Shown one piece after another: positions 24,401 through 41,363 of a stretch of 41,363 nt of DNA (position 1 is its first letter; each line of letters starts with the position of its first letter). The position numbers and the translations under genes were made by a program. The notes beneath the pieces were generated by a model. It was given only the letters and a program-made list of their open reading frames with translations, ran no database searches and was not told where the DNA came from. Where the stretch lies: NCBI GenBank assembly GCA_031257795.1, contig JAIRNW010000055.1:1-41363 (forward strand), in the 5' to 3' direction. The DNA comes from Holosporales bacterium. Lineage in GTDB: Bacteria; Pseudomonadota; Alphaproteobacteria; BNTO01.

Positions 24401-25077
24401 AAGAGTTTGAGGCGTTGGGATTTTTCTTAAAAGATCATCCGCTTGACGTTTATAGTGACGTGACAAGCATGATGAATCTGCACGACAGCTCTTCGTTTGC
24501 CAGGTTAGCCCAAATCTCTGAAAACGGGGTTACTGTTCGATTTGCCGCTATTATTTTGTCAAAAGAGGAGCGCACTTCCCAAAAAAATGGGGGAAAGTAC
24601 GCATTTGTCACGCTATCTGATAAGTTTGGGATTTTTGAGGTCCCTTTCTTTTCGGAGAGCTACGCTAGGATTCGGGATATCGTGGAGCCGGGGCGAGCAG
24701 TGTATGTGGAGGCGCTTGCGCGCCAGAATGGGGATTCATTCCGCCTTACTGGTCAAGCCATGGAAAGACTGGAAGACAATGCGAAAACGGCAGACGAAAA
24801 CAAGATACAGCGCTTAAGTTTGCAGATTCAGCCGGATTGCGGTATTGCGGAGAAGCTTAGTGGCGTTTTGAGTCGATTGGAGAATGGCACTAAGGTGGGC
24901 GGCTCCAGCGAGGAGGTTGTGAACCCTAGTGAAGTGAACGTTTACAATGGCAGTTTAGTCGAATTGATTGTTCCGTACGAACACGTTATTTTGAAAATAT
25001 CGTTCCAAAAATTGTACGAGATCCCAACAAGCGTTAAGGCTGAGATTTTGTCATGGAATGGAGTCCACTATGTTTAG
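21484..25077 (+). CDS. dnaE: DNA polymerase III alpha subunit
   Basis: Starts at the ATG at 21484 (MATPSFVHLRVHSAYSL, PHP domain). Polymerase core motifs follow (GPGRGSGAGS, PDFDVDF, beta-binding and OB regions). The ORF-track N-terminal 71 aa read through repeats. Confidence 0.97.
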   Translation: MATPSFVHLRVHSAYSLSHGAIKVSHIPDLCLANSMPAVAITDINNLFGVMDIAKTLSSKGIQHIVGSQITLNIQDSVSSFSATIVLLAKSLVGYKNLIKLSTASYQHKNLQSEGPAITMDHLEQYHDDLICLTGGDTGPLAHFLLQKNHAAAEALLSKLLLLFKDNLYIEIMRHGLPPQITLEPQFLDLAAKHGVPIVATNDVYFEDRTMFEAHDVLLCIANAHYLSETNREQSIPDKYFKSQEEMQALFADLPEALENTVNIAKRCHFILQERAPILPKFTSESGLSEPEELRLQSAKGLQHRLETRVFPDILRSRAKNGQTADLTEEERAAIVDKYTARLENELGVIEKMGFPGYFLIVSDFIKYAKSQNIPVGPGRGSGAGSIVAWALTITDIDPIKFSLIFERFLNPERVSMPDFDVDFCQTRRAEVIDYVRRRYGDDKIAQIITFGKLQARAVLRDVGRVLAIPYGQVDKVCRLVPNNPSAPVTLSEAVKKDETFEAMMKEDPAIEKLINIGLKLEGLYRHASVHAAGVVIGDQVLADVVPLYYDGESPIAITQINMKYIENAGLLKFDFLGLKTLSVIQMCVDLLKKQNIDVDISLIPLDDPKTFELLCNTNVLGVFQLESGGMREVVKKLRPDRFEDLIALVALYRPGPMNDIPKYLARKHGREEVAYPHSSIQSILESTYGVMVYQEQVMQIAQVMGGDTLGGADLLRRAMGKKIKAEMDAQRKNFVDGAIKNGVAEETASDVFSLMAKFASYGFNKSHSAPYALISYQTAFLKANFPVEFFAATASFAKGDTDGLIALFQDLRENGLELLPPDINKSFVDFVPEGKGVRYALSAIKNVGEKAMEGLVQERAKNGVFSSLEDFAARLGDIINKRQLENLIASGALDAFGHTRKQLFNSADLIVKYANMYKQEKAKAARSLFGDEAAAANEPLRLRISGDAGEGGEPGGKNNTEPEWNLLEKTQKEFEALGFFLKDHPLDVYSDVTSMMNLHDSSSFARLAQISENGVTVRFAAIILSKEERTSQKNGGKYAFVTLSDKFGIFEVPFFSESYARIRDIVEPGRAVYVEALARQNGDSFRLTGQAMERLEDNAKTADENKIQRLSLQIQPDCGIAEKLSGVLSRLENGTKVGGSSEEVVNPSEVNVYNGSLVELIVPYEHVILKISFQKLYEIPTSVKAEILSWNGVHYV

Positions 25078-25097
25078 AAAGCGGAGAAAATAAAATA

Positions 25098-25484
25098 ATG
25101 GGAATGCCAGCTATCCTTTCGGGATTGTGCAAGTGCGTATTCGGAGCTGCTCCAACGCCTTTAATTGTGCCGCCGATCGACTGTGTGGTCGCAAAGAATA
25201 TGCCGATGGCCACGATAATGAACCACATACCGTTCATGAATATCACGCCATTTGGAACGTGCATGAACATAGCAAACCCAATGGTCGCGGCGGCAACGGC
25301 GGCGGCCCTCGGTGTTCTGACGCCGATGCCTTGCATTCCGATAACAACGGGGCCCTGGCTTCCGATCAAACCCACGATTGTTGTTAAAAACAAGCCAGCC
25401 CTAGACAACACGTCTATGCTTATGTGTCAGTGGGGAGGGGTTATACAGGTGTCGTTCCCCGGACTAACAATGTGCACAATGTAA
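25098..25484 (+). CDS. DUF4280 / PAAR-like domain protein
   Basis: 128 aa. The pattern LSGLCKCVFGAAPTPL..., NITPFGTCMNIANPMVAAATAAALGVLTPMPCIPITTGPW, ...ALDNTSMLMCQWGGVIQV matches my recollection of the DUF4280 consensus (C.FG..P, NI.PFG.C....NP.VAAAT.AA.G.L.P.PC.P....W, C..GG.I). The gene starts 21 nt after the dnaE stop. Confidence 0.7.
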   Translation: MGMPAILSGLCKCVFGAAPTPLIVPPIDCVVAKNMPMATIMNHIPFMNITPFGTCMNIANPMVAAATAAALGVLTPMPCIPITTGPWLPIKPTIVVKNKPALDNTSMLMCQWGGVIQVSFPGLTMCTM

Positions 25485-29497: not shown

Positions 29498-30076
29498 CTC
29501 ACTCCCAAGAAACAGCGCGAACCGAAGTTCGCACGCATTGCAACCGAGCGGCAGAGTAGCAAAAAGGAATTCCAGGAAGTAAGAGATAAAACCGGCAAAA
29601 AAACAACTATAGATTGCGTTTGTGGTTTTATTTTTTACCGCGGATTATGGTCAATTGTTTTGGGGCAATTAATGTTATTGCTGTTTTTTAATAAAAGAAG
29701 TTGTTGTTTGTATAGAACTTTTGATTTCTTCAAAAAACATTTTCCCACTAACATTCTTAAAAAGAGAAAAAGTTATTAAAAAACAATTTTAATGAGAACC
29801 CTTTAAGCCACAGGAAGGATGGCTGGAATAGCCATAGTCAGCGTCCAAAACGTTTTCCCCGGCGAAATGTACTCCGCACAAGCCTACTCGTTCAGGTGTA
29901 ACTACATCCTGTTCAGATGTAGCACCATTTGGCATTGAATGGTCTTCATCCGATGGCGGATCGCATAGTTGATGACGGACCGTAATGGAAAGATACGACT
30001 CACACATTTTTGCCGTTTTACTTATTTATATAATGTGATACACTGCAGTCATGAGAGTTTTATTTATGGATATTTT

Positions 30077-30811
30077 ATGAGTAACAAAGCATATATATCT
30101 TTGTTTTTAAGCGTCACTTCCCTCAGCGTTGTATTTGGTGAACTTTGGTGTGATTTATTTGGGAAAGACTCAGCGTCACGTGATGGGCAGCAGGCGGGAG
30201 CAAATGCAAACGGTAATTCAGAGACAGGATGTGACCGCGCTGTGCGCTTGCTTGACAGCCGACGAATTCGAGACCAAAGGCAGGGTTTGGAGCTTCTCAT
30301 GAGGCTGGCTAATCAAGTGGTTCCCGAAGCACAATTTCAGCTTGGTAAGCGTTTTTTTCAGCTTGGGTCTGATGCCGGGATAGCTTGTGGGAAGGAATGC
30401 CTAGAAAGAGCGGCAAGTCAAGGCTATCAACCAGCGAGAGTCCTACATGAACAGTATTTCCCAAAGAGTGGTGGAAACTACCCCCAACATCGCATGACCA
30501 CCAATCACGATCGGTTTGTCCCTCTGATGGACAGGGCTGCTCAAGGAGACCGTGATGCACAATTTCAGCTTGGAGAATATTTTATCAAAGATGGGGATGG
30601 AAGTTTGATTTTCAGTTTAGAATATCTGAGAAGAGCAGCCGATCAAGGTCATCCAAAAGCCCAGGAGCAATACGGGTGGCGGTTATTCTGTTTGAGCAAG
30701 GAGGAGCCAGAAGATCAGCAAGGAATAGAAGCTGCCAGACATTACTTAGAACTAGCCGCACAACAAGGGCGTAAGAAGGCACGAGAGCTTCTTACCGTGA
30801 TTGGGTATTGA
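30077..30811 (+). CDS. Sel1-like repeat (SLR) protein with signal peptide
   Basis: MSNKAYISLFLSVTSLSVVFG N-terminus. Repeats EAQFQLGKRFF..AASQGYQPA and DAQFQLGEYF..AADQGHPKAQEQYG..AAQQG. The stop is immediately followed by a family-A element. Confidence 0.8.
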   Translation: MSNKAYISLFLSVTSLSVVFGELWCDLFGKDSASRDGQQAGANANGNSETGCDRAVRLLDSRRIRDQRQGLELLMRLANQVVPEAQFQLGKRFFQLGSDAGIACGKECLERAASQGYQPARVLHEQYFPKSGGNYPQHRMTTNHDRFVPLMDRAAQGDRDAQFQLGEYFIKDGDGSLIFSLEYLRRAADQGHPKAQEQYGWRLFCLSKEEPEDQQGIEAARHYLELAAQQGRKKARELLTVIGY

Positions 30812-36281: not shown

Positions 36282-36764
36282 ATGGCCACTAAAGGATTGG
36301 CACATAATTTGAGGCTGGCGTTATACCAGCCAGAAATAGCGCAGAACGTTGGCGCGATGTTACGCGTGTGCGCTTGTTTCGGTGTGTCTATGGACATCAT
36401 TGAGCCAACTGGCTTCCCATTCGACAGTAAACGTATGCGGCGGGCGGGAATGGATTACATTGATTTTGTCAAAGTAGAAAAGTATTTGTCTTTCGAGGAC
36501 TTCCACGCATGTTGCGGCCGAAGAATCGTACTGCTTGACGTGAAGGGGGAGCAGTCGTTGCACGATTTCAAATTCCGTCCAGAAGACGTAATCATGGTTG
36601 GACAAGAAGGCAGTGGTGTTCCAGAGGCCGTTTTCGAAAAGTGCGAGCAACGCGTGAGGATCGATATGCTCGAGAACATGAGGTCGCTTAACGTCAGCGT
36701 TTCTGCAGCGATCGCCATATTTGAGGCAATTCGCCAACAGTCTCTAACAACAGGCCAACAGTAG
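36282..36764 (+). CDS. trmL: tRNA (cytidine/uridine-2'-O)-methyltransferase, SpoU/TrmL family
   Basis: LALYQPEIAQNVGAMLRVCACFG, VGQEGSGVP and SLNVSVSAAIAIFEA (SPOUT knot motifs). 160 aa. Confidence 0.85.
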   Translation: MATKGLAHNLRLALYQPEIAQNVGAMLRVCACFGVSMDIIEPTGFPFDSKRMRRAGMDYIDFVKVEKYLSFEDFHACCGRRIVLLDVKGEQSLHDFKFRPEDVIMVGQEGSGVPEAVFEKCEQRVRIDMLENMRSLNVSVSAAIAIFEAIRQQSLTTGQQ

Positions 36765-36772
36765 GGAACATG

Positions 36773-36900
36773 CACAGTCACAAAAAGTTTGCGAGTTCGT
36801 CGCCCCAGCTCGAAACTCATGTACGTTTAGTACACTCCGCTTCTGCGCTCCGTTTCTCCTGGGAAAACCTCAATTTAAATCTTATGTCAACGGGTTCTTA
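36773..36900. repeat. composite element (B left terminus, core, E right terminus)
   Basis: cacagtcacaaaaagtttgcgagttcgtcg ... caatttaaatcttatgtcaacgggttctta. The last bases provide the infA TAA stop on the minus strand. Confidence 0.82.
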
Positions 36901-37116
36901 TTTTTGCCGAAATGTTATCCGCCCCTTCGTCAAATCGTATGGCGTCATCTCAACTGTAACTTTATCTCCGACTAAGATCTTGATTTTGTTTTTCCGTACA
37001 CGCCCGGATGTGTGCGCCAGAATCACACAATCGTTTTCCAGTTTCACTCGAAACATCGCATTCGGGAGCAGTTCAGTAACAACTCCAGATAGTTCTAGCA
37101 GGTCCTCTTTCGGCAT
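36898..37116 (-). CDS. infA: translation initiation factor IF-1
   Basis: [72 protein letters not shown] is canonical IF-1. Confidence 0.97.
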
Positions 37117-37170
37117 AAAACAATACTAATAACACACCACCACTACACTCTAGTACTTTTTACTATAGAA

Positions 37171-37345
37171 TGTCACAAAAAACGCATACACCCAGTCATA
37201 AAAAGTTTGCCGGTTTGTCGACACGGCCCAGTGGACCGTGCGCACCAAACCACAAAAAGTTTGCGGTTTGTTTATCCCCGGCCGCAAAAGCTTGTGAGTT
37301 AAGAACCTGTTTATACCCAGTCATCGAAAGAATTGAGGGGGGAGG
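37171..37345. repeat. cluster of family-B terminus fragments
   Basis: cccagtcataaaaagtttgccgg, accacaaaaagtttgcgg, and atacccagtcatcgaaag. Confidence 0.65.
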
Positions 37346-37350
37346 AGACA

Positions 37351-40300
37351 CTAGGCCATTCCCTGCAGGCACGCACACTCCGCCCCATTGCTTATATCAA
37401 TAGACCAAAAGTGATACAGCAGAAACCGCAAAGCCTCATACATCGTCTTCATCGTCCTCTCTTGTATTGCCCTATGCTCGCGGAATTCCTCGGTTAGAGC
37501 ATCCACCTTCCTTTCGATTAGGCGCATCGGCGAGGTCTCGTAAGCAATGGTGACCGTGTTCGCGCAATCCCCCAAAATATCCACGTAGCTCTGCATCCCG
37601 CCGTAAAATTCGCACGGCAAAACGCCAACCCCCTCTTTCGTTCCAGACAGCATTTCAGAAAACTCTGTCTTCAAGTTGCTTACTTTCGCCAAGTTTTCCT
37701 CGTCCATCCCATTTCCCGCAGCCGCCACAATCTCACATGCCATGAAAAACAAATCTTTAATCCAAGCATACACCCCAATATCCTCTTCAGAAAAATGAGC
37801 TTTTGCCGCATATTTTTCCACCTCGAACCCGGTTGAATCAAACACTGGAATGTGGGGACCAAAAATTTTTACCAGCAATGGCGTCAATGAATTGGCCGTT
37901 AGCGAGTCTGTTGTTTTTGCGAAATCACCGATAATTGAAATACTGTTTAATAAATTTTCCAGCACATCCCTATATTCGCGCAAACCGGGCTGCATTGTTA
38001 GCTCAACCAAACGTGCGGCGTAGCGGCGCAGAGAAGGTTGCATAATGGCGTCTTTGACGAAACGAGAGCCGCCGTTGAGGAGGATCTCAACGGTGCCAAG
38101 GTAGCATTGAGGCAATGAGCCAATATCTCCTAAAACTTGTGAGACAGAATCAATAGTTTGTAGGAAATTAGTGTCGTACCCAAAGGATCTAACAGTTTCT
38201 GTGAGGACTTCATGTATTCTGGTTAGCACGCTTTTGATTTTCCCATCAACTGGAACGATCCCTATCGCAGAGTATAGCGTGTCTTTGACTGAATCCTCGA
38301 CGCTTTGCAACGATTGCAGAACCTCAGCTTTGGTAGCTTTGTTTTCAGAGGATATCTCTTCTTTCGCGGATTTTTGTGAACTCAATACTGAAGCCACCGC
38401 GTTTGCTAGGCCGCCTAGTATTGCGGCTTTTGACGCGGCCTGTTCGGCAACAACGAGCGATTTTGTTGCTGTTTGTGAGTCTAAAATTTCGGCTGCTGAG
38501 TTTATTAGCTCCTTTAAAGCTGCCTTTTTGAAGGAGGTCTGCTCGTTGAGGATCGCCTCCTTAGCACTTTCTTGCGAATTCAGAATTGAAGACTCTGCGC
38601 TCGCTAGCTCTTCTAGTATCGCGATTTTTGAAGCGGCTTGTTCGGCGGACAACGCGTCCTTTGCCGCGGTTTGTGCAGCAACTAACGCATCCTTCGCTGC
38701 GGCTTGCTCAGCAGACAGTGCACTCTTTGCGGCGGATTGTGAAGCTAAAATTTCACTTGTTGCGCTAGCTAGCGTTTCTAATATCGCCTCTTTTGAATCG
38801 GCTTGTTCAGCGGACAGCACACTCTTTGCTGCGGCGAGCGCTTCATTCGTCGCCGTTTGTGCGGCTAAAATTTCAGTTGTTGAACTCGCTAGTTCCTCTA
38901 ATACAGCCCCTTTCGCGCTTACTAGTTCTTCTGATATAGCCTCTTTTGCGTTGGTCTGCTCGGCCAGTATAGAGCTTGCCGCAGCCGACACTGTTGACGT
39001 TACAGCATCTCGAGCTTCTTCAAGCTCCGATAAAACGGTTTTACTATTTGCGTCAACTTCGCCTTTTATTGATTCAGCGCCCTCAACAATTCCCTTCGCC
39101 AAATTTTCATGTTCAAGGGCCGACTGCTCTGCGAGATTCTCGATGGCCAACTGCATATGCCCTTGTTTCTTCGAGAGACAAGATTGCATGGTGATCATCT
39201 CTGTCTTCCCGCAAATGAGCATATCTCTTACTTTATTGTATCCGTTAGCCAGCTCCGACCTAACAACTTCCTGTTCGGTAGAAATTGTGTTTTGACCTTC
39301 TGCCAATTGGCTAAACAGGTCCTGCATAAGCTCCTCTTGTTCTGAGGCAATGGTTCTTTGGCCGTCTGCTAGTTGGGCGAAAAGGTCCTGCACAAGTTCA
39401 CCTTGTTTTTCGTGCAGTGTTTTCGCTTCTGTTTGGATTTCCTCCTTGTAGACACCAAGTGTTGCTTTCACACCGGCGATATCGGCCGTTACCCCCTCTT
39501 TTGCTGAGGCGATGGCGTCGGTTAGTGCGGCTTCTGCTGCCTGAGCGGCGTTTACGACCACATTGGTTATAGCGGTTTCAGTGGCTTCGATTGCGCCGGT
39601 GACAGCTGTTTCAGTGGCTTCGATTGCCCCGATTACTGCGGTTTCCGAGGTTTGTACTGCGGCTGCGAGTGCGCCGGACAGAGCTGTTTCAGTGGCTACG
39701 ATTGCCCCGATTACTGCGGTTTCCGAGGTTTGTACTGCGGCTGTGAGTGCGTCAATTATTGTTGTGTTTGAACTTTGTGCGTTTGAAACATATGTGTCTA
39801 GCGCGTATTTTACCGCCGCAATATCGTTTGTTATATCGCCTTTGGCGGTCGCGATTGTATCGGTTATGTCACCTTTGACGGTCGCGATTGCGCCGGTTAT
39901 ATCGTCTTGAGCTGTCGTAATTGCATCGATTACGTCGCCTTTCGCATCTGCGATTGCGGTTGTTATGTCGGTTTTCGAGGTTTGTACGGCTTGAGTGGCT
40001 TCCAAGATTGCTGTTGCAAGGACAGTTTCCGTGGCCTTAATTGCGTCAGTGACGGTGGCTTCCGATGCCTCGATTATGTTAGTTACAGCAACTTTCGAGG
40101 CTTCGATTGCATCAATTACTGCTGTTTCCGATATCTCGATTGCGCCAGTTATAGTGGCCTTAGAGGCTTCGATTGTGCCGACTACAGCAGTTTCAGAGGC
40201 TTTGATTGCATCGGCTACGGCAGTTTTCGGCGTTTGTACGGCCTGAGCTACCTCTGATATCGCGGCAGTTAGGGCGGTTTCAGTTGCTTTGATCGCATTG

Positions 40301-41363
40301 TTTATGACGGTTTCCGTGGTTGCAACTGCATCAGTTATTGCAGTTTGTGAAGTTTGGACGGCAGCTGTGATCGTATCGATTACATTGGCTTCCGTGGTTG
40401 CAACTGCATCAATTATTGTTGCAGCTGAATTTTGCGAGCCTAAAGCGTGTGCGTCTAACGCAGATTTTACAGTAGCAATATCGTTTGTTATGCCACCTTT
40501 AGCGGTCGCAATTGCGTCTGTTATGTCATTTTTGGCGGTTACGACTGCTCCAGTTATGTCGCTTTCGGCGGTCGCGACTGCGTCGGTTATGTCACCTTTA
40601 GCGGTCGCAATTGCGTCTGTTATTCCTGTTGCTAATGTTTGCGCAGCTAATTCTGAGACCTCTAACTCTGACATAACTCCAGCGATATCATCTGATATAG
40701 CAGAGTGTGCGGCTTGAATATCATTTGCCACGGCTGCTTGTAGATTCGCAATTTCATTTATTAGCGCCGCATTTGTTTCAGAAATATCATCCGCCAGCTC
40801 CCCCTTAGCAGCGGCGAGCCCTTCCTCCAACGAGGTTTTAGCGGCGGCAATCTCCTCGCCCAGCCCACCCTTGGCAGCGGCGAGCCCTTCCTCCAACGAG
40901 ATTTTGGTGGCAGCAATCTCTGCAGTTAGTGCCGAGCTAGCAGTAGTAATATTATTCGTCAGCGTAGTCTTGACCCCGGCCATCTCTTCCGTTAAAGCCG
41001 CCTTAAAAGTAGTAATATCTTCGTTTAACGAGGTTTTAGCGCTGACAATCTCTTCAGTCAGGGCCGTACTGGCGGCGGCAACAGCATTCTCCAACGCGGT
41101 CTGGGTTATGGCAAGCTTTTCAGCCAGTGCCGTGCTAGTAGTAGCAATATCCTCTTTCAGCTCAGTCTTAACGCCATCGATTTCACCAGTTAGCTCCACC
41201 TTAGCTCCAGTGATGCTTCCCTCTAGGGCGGTTTTGACTCCGCCAATCTCCTCCGTCAGCGCCGTATTAGAAGCTGCGATGCCATCTTTCAACACTGTTT
41301 TGACGTTGGTAATTTCTCCAGTAAGCGCCGTGTTGGCAGCGGCGATATCCCCCTCCAACGCCG
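37351..41363 (-). CDS. giant hendecad (11-residue) repeat protein with a ~300-aa non-repetitive C-terminal domain; 5' end lies outside the window
   Basis: Open frame of 1335 aa to the window edge. It carries dozens of consecutive 11-mers, for example TALTEEIGGVK TALEGSITGAK VELTGEIDGVK; DAIATAKGDIT DAVATAESDIT GAVVTAKNDIT; EAILETLASAT SEILASQSAAK. Repeat blocks lie at about 39450-41363 and 38300-39000, with a unique domain at 37351-38265. Confidence 0.8.
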   Translation of the reverse strand, partial: ALEGDIAAANTALTGEITNVKTVLKDGIAASNTALTEEIGGVKTALEGSITGAKVELTGEIDGVKTELKEDIATTSTALAEKLAITQTALENAVAAASTALTEEIVSAKTSLNEDITTFKAALTEEMAGVKTTLTNNITTASSALTAEIAATKISLEEGLAAAKGGLGEEIAAAKTSLEEGLAAAKGELADDISETNAALINEIANLQAAVANDIQAAHSAISDDIAGVMSELEVSELAAQTLATGITDAIATAKGDITDAVATAESDITGAVVTAKNDITDAIATAKGGITNDIATVKSALDAHALGSQNSAATIIDAVATTEANVIDTITAAVQTSQTAITDAVATTETVINNAIKATETALTAAISEVAQAVQTPKTAVADAIKASETAVVGTIEASKATITGAIEISETAVIDAIEASKVAVTNIIEASEATVTDAIKATETVLATAILEATQAVQTSKTDITTAIADAKGDVIDAITTAQDDITGAIATVKGDITDTIATAKGDITNDIAAVKYALDTYVSNAQSSNTTIIDALTAAVQTSETAVIGAIVATETALSGALAAAVQTSETAVIGAIEATETAVTGAIEATETAITNVVVNAAQAAEAALTDAIASAKEGVTADIAGVKATLGVYKEEIQTEAKTLHEKQGELVQDLFAQLADGQRTIASEQEELMQDLFSQLAEGQNTISTEQEVVRSELANGYNKVRDMLICGKTEMITMQSCLSKKQGHMQLAIENLAEQSALEHENLAKGIVEGAESIKGEVDANSKTVLSELEEARDAVTSTVSAAASSILAEQTNAKEAISEELVSAKGAVLEELASSTTEILAAQTATNEALAAAKSVLSAEQADSKEAILETLASATSEILASQSAAKSALSAEQAAAKDALVAAQTAAKDALSAEQAASKIAILEELASAESSILNSQESAKEAILNEQTSFKKAALKELINSAAEILDSQTATKSLVVAEQAASKAAILGGLANAVASVLSSQKSAKEEISSENKATKAEVLQSLQSVEDSVKDTLYSAIGIVPVDGKIKSVLTRIHEVLTETVRSFGYDTNFLQTIDSVSQVLGDIGSLPQCYLGTVEILLNGGSRFVKDAIMQPSLRRYAARLVELTMQPGLREYRDVLENLLNSISIIGDFAKTTDSLTANSLTPLLVKIFGPHIPVFDSTGFEVEKYAAKAHFSEEDIGVYAWIKDLFFMACEIVAAAGNGMDEENLAKVSNLKTEFSEMLSGTKEGVGVLPCEFYGGMQSYVDILGDCANTVTIAYETSPMRLIERKVDALTEEFREHRAIQERTMKTMYEALRFLLYHFWSIDISNGAECACLQGMA

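Follow-up and report, generated by a model that had tools for sequence, protein, structure and literature searches.

The 41,363-nucleotide window analyzed here (positions 1 to 41,363 of contig JAIRNW010000055.1, assembly GCA_031257795.1, from a Holosporales bacterium) ends within a giant gene on its minus strand, most of whose product consists of 11-residue (hendecad) repeats. We favor, with somewhat better than even confidence, the reading that this product is an exported spacer or tether of the coiled-coil type with an expanded rod, and that it comes from a Holosporales protein family that has not been described. The reading starts from plain observations on the gene: its frame is continuous, its product belongs to the family, the 11-residue periodicity is strong and the composition is compatible with helix. 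In kind, the proposed protein is not new, since exported rods of non-heptad coiled coil that bear globular domains at their ends are known; new are the end domains themselves and the extent of the hendecad expansion.

The open reading frame (ORF) runs from position 41361 to a stop codon at 37351..37353, comprises 1336 uninterrupted sense codons and is still open at the window edge. An earlier note on this DNA, made from the letters alone, had pointed to the missing N-terminus and had named an interruption further upstream as the sign of a pseudogene. We found instead that the gene is intact and that the frame runs on to a start codon. The visible protein, used as a query against 5.8 billion proteins, had a single match, P0001 (743 aa, NCBI nr, encoded on a separate 7.2-kb contig), whose last 39 aa are identical to the first 39 aa of the window protein. 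From its initial Met, P0001 reads MFTYSKSKNRK and then passes through hydrophobic residues to AHS. By inspection this leader resembles a Sec signal peptide, with a basic n-region (K6, K8, R10, and K11), the hydrophobic segment SALAFLALGTC and AHS|TS, and export of the protein across the inner membrane is predicted. The hendecads of P0001 begin only at aa 661 and are preceded by a domain of ~220 aa, a helical but non-hendecad segment of ~340 aa and a 65-aa linker that contains Gly and Pro.

The unitigs of the source run connect the two pieces. At the window end a unique 3424-nt unitig (depth 16.1) leads into a 152-nt unitig (41212-41363, depth 39.4), which a 106-nt unitig (depth 24.1) leaves and re-enters, passing from position 41363 through 35 nt to position 41201; a unique 648-nt unitig (depth 14.1) continues from the 152-nt repeat into the window. 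The 35-nt link translates in frame as ELTEELGGVQT. Because this graph allows only one linear path (unique, repeat, link and repeat n times, unique, with n ~1-2 from the depths), P0001 and the window ORF are evidently one gene with 1-2 further 198-nt (66-aa, six-hendecad) units between them. The terminal 152-nt stretch of the window (41212..41363, minus strand) occurs ~3 times in the gene, as judged from its depth relative to the flanking unique unitigs, forms part of this 198-nt higher-order repeat and is the point at which the contig breaks. The full-length protein accordingly has ~2106-2172 aa and ~92-98 hendecads, and the window holds its C-terminal two-thirds. Unitigs cover positions 36871-41363 of the window at an even depth of 14-17x, and no variant joint falls within the gene.

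We quantified the periodicity as residue-identity autocorrelation relative to 200 shuffles. In residues 1-640 of the visible protein, lag 11 stood out with z = 19.5, lag 22 followed with 15.7, and lags 33 to 77 had values of 6-11; in residues 771-1030, lags 11 and 33 had z = 8.4 and 8.0. A signal at lag 7 was absent, and the last 306 aa carried no periodic signal in this test. At the DNA level, Tandem Repeats Finder reported periods of 33, 66, and 78 bp. The visible part contains ~58 + 24 = 82 hendecads in two arrays split by a linker of ~130 aa, which bears out the earlier description of a protein of more than 80 consecutive hendecads with a C-terminal domain, the latter being the non-repetitive tail of ~305 aa.

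Arranging the sequence in rows of 11, with position profiles and a phase map, resolved the arrays into blocks, all encoded on the minus strand. Array 1 (39439..41363; aa 1-641, ~58 units in its visible part) continues upstream off the window. It begins with block A, of the ALTEEIxxxKT type (40636-41361; aa 1-242), followed by block B1+C1, of the DAIATAKGDIT and then the IEASETAVxxA type (39976-40635; aa 243-462), and by block B2+C2 (39439-39975; aa 463-641), which is a diverged segmental copy of B1+C1. The 11-column register is fixed over 21 units (aa 1-230), with Leu in column 2 and Ile in column 6, and moves at a few block borders, where the hydrophobic columns pass from (2,6) to (5,9), (1,8), and (4,8). 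Array 1 is followed by a Gln/Glu-rich helical linker (39052..39438; aa 642-770; Glu 15%, Gln 11%; z = 5.0 at lag 22), inside which lies a duplicated 22-residue unit, GELVQDLFAQLADGQRTIASEQ / EELMQDLFSQLAEGQNTISTEQ (39271-39402; aa 654-697). Array 2 (38269..39051; aa 771-1031, ~24 units) comprises units of the EAILEELASAx, SEILASQSAAK, and SALSAEQAAAK types arranged in a 33-residue super-repeat, has a hydrophobic period of 3.66 and corresponds to the DNA repeat families D2 and D4. Both the consensus motifs of the sub-families and the Gln/Glu-rich linker with its duplicated unit agree with those listed in the earlier note.

The repeats are supported as hendecads of the amphipathic alpha-helical type, as had been proposed earlier. 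Hydrophobic-moment spectra peaked at 3.6-3.67 residues along the whole rod and had almost zero power at a period of 2.0; when only large hydrophobic residues were counted, the best period was 3.65 in array 1 and 3.66 in array 2. The 946 visible hendecad residues include one Pro and neither Cys nor Trp, consist of Ala, Thr, and Ser to 44-46%, carry a net charge of -82 and form no aromatic ladders. In AlphaFold2 (AF2) models the helix N-terminal to the arrays had predicted local distance difference test scores (pLDDT) of 86-93, and for that C-terminal to them the score was ~59. Projected onto an 11/3 wheel, sub-family A places Leu2 (100%), Ile6 (95%), and Ala/Val9 within ~65 degrees, flanked by Glu/Asp5 on one side and Lys10 on the other, with Ala scattered elsewhere. 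Sub-family B has a seam of Ile5 and Ile/Val9, with Lys2 on one side and Asp4 on the other beyond two Ala positions, and sub-family C has a likewise narrow seam of Ile1 and Val8.

A seam this narrow, flanked by opposite charges, is what packing between helices requires. Hendecads with hydrophobic residues at positions a, d, e, and h give rise to right-handed coiled coils, for example in the stalks of rotary ATPases (PMC6131620). The giant protein has the 11-residue periodicity and hydrophobic residues of the a/d/e/h type, with large residues at only two of the four core positions, and its rod would form a coiled coil or a helical bundle. The rods of the relatives described below behaved similarly: their best period was 3.60-3.78 in all 16, and in every rod the power at 3.5 was far below the peak. 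The rod of the family is therefore of a non-heptad type (11/3, 15/4). At 0.15 nm per residue, the visible arrays would span ~140 nm and the whole rod ~210-230 nm at full extension.

Comparison of the repeat copies indicated how the rod became so long. Most of the 33-bp units are 60-83% identical at the DNA level, a single 78-nt pair reaches 92%, and the 253-nt segment that relates B2+C2 to B1+C1 is duplicated at a distance of 657 nt with 71% identity. Near-identity between copies is confined to the 198-nt unit at the 5' end, and only this block collapses in the assembly. The arrays are therefore mostly old and have kept their frame, and the 5' end has expanded recently. The suggestion that the 33-bp arrays are recombination-prone was upheld only in part. 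The rods of the relatives measure 76-296 aa versus at least 1,480 aa here, a 5- to 19-fold difference, and repeats occur in some of these as well: P0011 contains approximately nine tandem repeats of 22 aa (aa ~290-480; z = 21.5) and P0019 a 110-aa duplication. Rod length is the variable element of the family and, judging from the repeats, the rod has grown by repeated duplication of blocks of roughly multiples of 11 residues (11, 22, 33, 66, and ~220). We also noted that P0004 has repeat units of its own, of ~41 aa.

The arrays are followed by a conserved, non-repetitive C-terminal domain (CTD) of ~305 aa and ordinary composition (37354..38268, minus strand; aa 1032-1336), supported by HMMER hits, alignment and an AF2 model. 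It contains the motifs LPQxYLGTxExLLxG, LLVKIFGPxIPVFD, AHFSxEDxGxYAWIKD, and ILGDC. Modeled from the family alignment, the CTD consisted entirely of helices (pLDDT 78.6; predicted template modeling score 0.66), with pLDDT values of 85-95 over most of residues 71-290. The N-terminal domain, modeled in the same way, was beta-rich and ran into a long helix (pLDDT 69, core 85-90). The earlier note had recognized no motif in the C-terminal domain, and indeed it had no match in Pfam, NCBIfam or the PDB. The Foldseek comparison proposed there found nothing significant for the CTD in the PDB (best E = 0.12, TM-score 0.15) or in BFVD (best E = 0.07), nor for the N-terminal domain in the PDB (best E = 0.44), and TM-scores in these comparisons reached no more than ~0.2. 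Profile searches of PDB sequences gave no matches in the end domains, and phmmer searches of PDB sequences with both protein pieces were empty. The invariant alignment columns hold Gly, Phe, Tyr, Trp, Pro, and one Asp in the CTD, and one Cys and two Gly in the N-terminal domain; a conserved set of residues that looks catalytic is absent from the alignments of both. This suggests that the end domains have structural or binding roles rather than enzymatic ones.

When the last 319 aa were compared by phmmer with 1.84 billion representative proteins, 17 hits were obtained at E <= 0.001, of which 16 are real homologues of the CTD, ranging from P0002 (1.9e-61, 37% identity) to P0017 (1.6e-05). P0018 was rejected as a spurious repeat protein. 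The homologues are 567-906 aa long and always have the domain at the C-terminus. The N-terminal end of the giant protein belongs to the same family: aa 84-312 of P0001 matched P0002 with a BLASTP E-value of 7e-32, and P0001 matched P0019 at 3e-26, with the shared motifs RYFLxxxMCE[IL]YD and PxYQ[TS]V[AS]NL[IL]GxPxxxxFxLDxxGxA. Most homologues have hydrophobic leaders at the N-terminus, which in P0007 includes a lipobox-like LAAGC. All homologues with a source name come from metagenome-assembled genomes (MAGs) labeled 'Holosporales bacterium'. The named members are MDR0633001.1 (P0019), MDR2464439.1 (P0006), MDR1598140.1 (P0012), MDR1208590.1 (P0011), and MDR1908199.1 (P0014), and P0002-P0017 include unnamed proteins from JGI and Logan. 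Their product names are evidently automatic: they read 'hypothetical protein' except for one occurrence each of 'apolipoprotein A1/A4/E family protein' (P0019), 'MlaD', and 'ribosomal protein S8'.

The relatives share with the giant protein the beta-rich N-terminal domain, the all-alpha CTD, the leader, a central non-heptad helical rod (3.6-3.78) and a stand-alone chromosomal gene. They differ from it in total length (567-906 aa versus ~2,100 aa or more) and in the rod, which in the giant protein consists mostly of explicit hendecads. Many of the relatives have His/Pro-rich C-terminal tails, which the giant protein lacks, and the near-invariant Cys of their YCxxAHF motif is missing from it (YAAKAHF). 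As a side observation, the low-complexity tails of the relatives, including those of P0012 and P0014, are His-rich or PEPTEP-like. The homologue genes stand in varied housekeeping contexts, and a comparison of four homologue neighborhoods showed no conserved partner of the kind sought, for instance a chaperone or secretion system.

Other searches added little to the family. A word-indexed search of the 5.8 billion proteins found no match with the CTD and only P0017 with the family profile; a scan of genome contigs with the whole protein found no relative; and metagenome contigs contained no match either to an exact 60-mer taken from the window end or to a profile built on the three most similar CTDs. 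The family has no model in Pfam or NCBIfam, and an NCBIfam scan of the giant protein was empty. Homology of the whole protein to a characterized family, which would have contradicted the earlier description, was thus looked for in Pfam and NCBIfam and not seen. By its sequence relationships, this is an undescribed family that lies outside any curated one and occurs so far only in Holosporales-type MAGs.

Taken together, these data fit best with an exported spacer. The domain order would be a Sec-type signal peptide, a beta-rich N-terminal domain of ~220 aa, a helical rod of ~340 aa common to the relatives, a short non-helical linker, array 1 (~68-74 units), the Gln/Glu-rich linker, array 2 (~24 units) and the all-alpha CTD of ~305 aa. 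After export, the rod would fold into long continuous alpha-helices, whose narrow Leu/Ile/Ala seam with 11/3 periodicity would pack into a coiled coil or bundle, either straight or with a slight right-handed twist, forming a fiber of ~150-230 nm if fully extended. The rod would act as a spacer that fixes how far apart the non-enzymatic end domains lie: the bacterial envelope would hold one of them, and the second would reach a partner in the host or the envelope. The length of the rod would be an evolutionarily adjustable parameter. The oligomeric state, the cellular location and the binding partner are predictions of this model. Several points weigh against it. An outer-membrane anchor or known secretion signal was not recognized in the giant protein; it might be retained in the periplasm, where a rod of 150-230 nm would have to fold back; and in the leader of P0001 the hydrophobic core has Glu16 nearby. 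With two large hydrophobic residues in every 11, the rod is lean for a classical a/d/e/h core, and Gly makes up 5% of array 1. The continuity of P0001 with the window rests on the 39-aa identity and the unitig graph. Finally, the rod segment of the family profile matches ApoA-IV among PDB sequences (1.3e-8) and, more weakly, ApoA-I, ApoE, and apolipophorin-III.

This last match leads to a different reading, which we regard as unlikely: that the protein is a lipid binder like apolipoproteins, LEA proteins or perilipins, with 3-11 amphipathic helices that are disordered or loosely bundled in solution and spread on lipid. The lipid surface could be a host membrane, a lipid droplet or the bacterium's own outer membrane, and the role one of lipid coating or lipid scavenging. 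An 11-residue periodicity is typical of exchangeable lipid-binding helices, and the top Pfam match of the giant protein is indeed PF01442 Apolipoprotein (E = 9.4e-11), a model that also matches four of 18 family members and is echoed in the NCBI product name of P0019. However, the score of 42.2 bits compares with a Pfam cut-off of 90, P0001 reaches only 20.9 bits, and in the same Pfam scan LEA_4/LEA group 3 (PF02987), perilipin, and synuclein gave no match at E <= 1. Convergence is a known source of matches between helical repeats (Mistry et al., 2013, as cited in PMC5911502). The helices themselves also look different. Class A lipid-binding helices have a wide non-polar face of ~180 degrees with Lys on both edges, whereas the non-polar seam here is only ~65-100 degrees wide, bordered by acidic residues along one edge and by basic residues along the opposite one. 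The exchangeable apolipoproteins (ApoA-I, A-IV, and E, apolipophorin III) share with the giant protein the tandem amphipathic helices of 11 or 22 residues, but it lacks their Pro punctuation (one Pro in 946 aa), is strongly acidic, and has two conserved, unrelated globular domains at its flanks. The net charge of the arrays (-82) would be unfavorable on anionic membranes. The narrow seam with its mixed flanks and this charge are therefore better explained by a coiled-coil rod than by lipid binding, and of the earlier proposal that the protein binds lipid or lipid droplets there remain the sub-threshold apolipoprotein matches, which concern the rod only.

Other explanations account for less of the data. 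A Thr/Ala-rich beta-solenoid of 11-residue coils, similar to antifreeze or ice-binding proteins, would suit the high content of Ala, Thr, and Ser, the TxT-like strings such as ATETAVT and a weak PDB profile match to a designed ice-binding helical protein; it is very improbable given the hydrophobic power at 3.6-3.67 with almost none at period 2, the lack of Cys or aromatic ladders and the long helices into which both AF2 models turn the segments flanking the repeats, and to our knowledge 11 residues per turn are too tight for known solenoids without disulfides. We give equally little credence to an artefact, that is, a chimeric or mis-assembled repeat contig or a decaying pseudogene. The contig does end inside a collapsed repeat, Logan contigs break at several repeat borders and the copy number of the 5' block was estimated from depth only, but the 1336 codons contain no stop, the unitig tiling is even at 14-17x and the two ends of the protein independently match the two ends of one family. 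Moreover, the diverged repeats (60-83% DNA identity) keep both the frame and the amphipathic pattern, which argues for selection. The idea of a phage-derived tail tape-measure or fiber protein in a prophage remnant is close to refuted. Tape-measure proteins are long helical rulers, and the tape-measure family phrog_1272 gave a weak PHROG match (E = 5.7e-4); the neighboring genes, however, are housekeeping ones (infA, a SpoU methylase, an ABC-F protein, and threonyl-tRNA synthetase), a tblastn search with the CTD was empty in 50,697 phage records and a plasmid collection, the homologues stand alone in housekeeping contexts and there was no fold match in BFVD. A trimeric autotransporter adhesin was considered and rejected, with no Pfam hit in the CTD, an all-alpha model of this domain and no beta-barrel of the YadA type.

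Among known systems, the hendecad coiled-coil rods (PMC6131620) are close to the proposed spacer. Their repeat is likewise 11 residues long and places its hydrophobic seam at positions of the a/e/h type; they are rich in Ala, Leu, and Glu and form rigid spacers between globular ends. They have no sequence homology to the giant protein, measure 10-70 nm and are cytoplasmic or part of S-layers, whereas the giant protein is predicted to be exported, has ~90 units and has a leaner core of two large residues plus Ala. The trimeric autotransporter adhesins (YadA, BadA, and NadA) are very long exported coiled-coil fibers of host-associated Proteobacteria with non-heptad periodicities and repeat-driven length variation, but the giant protein lacks the YadA-type beta-barrel anchor and, in Pfam searches, a head or neck motif.

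Holosporales are obligate symbionts of protists, and Holospora genomes are public and probably represented within the library of 1.84 billion proteins; none of the homologues whose source was looked up was attributed to Holospora. An 89-kDa periplasmic protein of the invasion tip of Holospora obtusa has been implicated in the interaction with the host (PMC9866348, PMC5911502). It resembles the family in being lineage-specific, exported or periplasmic and of a size near that of ordinary members, which is an analogy only. The few Holosporales host-interaction proteins that have been studied show little homology to proteins of other organisms (PMC11909080). A more specific version of the spacer model, which we put forward tentatively and hold to be doubtful, is a host-contact fiber specific to Holosporales, in which the rod would be a tunable ruler, lengthened to ~150-230 nm in this termite-gut lineage, and the orphan end domains new folds for envelope anchoring and host binding. 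If this is true, the rod would rank among the longest continuous non-heptad coiled coils of any bacterium, and the fiber would cross the distance from the symbiont envelope to the host, where it might reach, for example, the cytoskeleton, the symbiosome membrane or the nuclear envelope. A conserved, lineage-restricted family with predicted export is a concrete candidate for localization and binding studies in termite-gut symbioses, and a natural hendecad array of this length is of interest for structural work on coiled coils. The case also illustrates how short-read assembly splits and hides such genes.

The window as a whole is a piece of a bacterial chromosome, with dnaK, dnaE, metG, cysS, thrS, recR, dnaN, murC, secretin and bioB-like genes and one tRNA-Cys. 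The only public run containing the sequence is a termite-gut metagenome. The threonyl-tRNA synthetase is at most 57% identical to anything in 185,579 species-representative genomes, the best matches being Alphaproteobacteria that include Caedibacter and Odyssella, and the DnaN is 59.5% identical to the DnaN adjoining the homologue P0015, which is consistent with a relationship between the window organism and the source of P0015. A clade of Paracaedibacteraceae is known only from the guts of termites and other animals (PMC11909080). The named homologues come from Holosporales MAGs, and the host bacterium, an uncultured alphaproteobacterium of the termite gut that was previously taken for an intracellular one, is most likely a Holosporales symbiont.

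A gap of 234 nt separates the giant gene from the next gene downstream on this strand, infA (36898-37116, minus strand; 72 aa; PF01176, E = 1.5e-24), which encodes translation initiation factor IF-1; a convergent gene for a SpoU-type methylase lies beyond it. A 119-aa ORF on the plus strand (36770-37129) is a shadow of infA. Within 36716-37330, infA is bracketed by direct repeats of ~35 nt (CAGTCA[CT]AAAAAGTTTGC...) at 36775 and 37193, with a third copy at 37247. In the source run, 36899-37318 (420 nt) is bypassed by one unitig, a second unitig connects one strand to the other at 36861/36902, and the depth at 36716-36894 is ~556x over a baseline of ~15x. These flanking repeats, odd unitigs and high depth suggest that the surroundings of infA hold a short element that is repeated or mobile, or else an indel in the population.

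Further genes of the window are reported here as observations in their own right. A secretin with FecR_C and Secretin_N_2 domains (3876-5834, minus strand) could provide an export route through the outer membrane. An ORF with a DUF4280 domain (PAAR-like, associated with type VI secretion) at 25053-25484 on the plus strand overlaps the end of dnaE, and no other type VI secretion genes were seen in the window. A 247-aa ORF (1930-2673, plus strand) has a weak match to Ras/Roc small GTPases, which is unusual in bacteria and recalls the eukaryote-like proteins of intracellular symbionts, and a Sel1/TPR repeat protein (29969-30811, plus strand) belongs to a class that is common among host-interaction proteins of intracellular bacteria. 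Outside the window, the Holosporales MAG contig that carries P0006 encodes another giant protein, of 2895 aa (L085, 10501-11095, minus strand), which extends past the edge of the locus; genes of very large size may be frequent among such symbionts.

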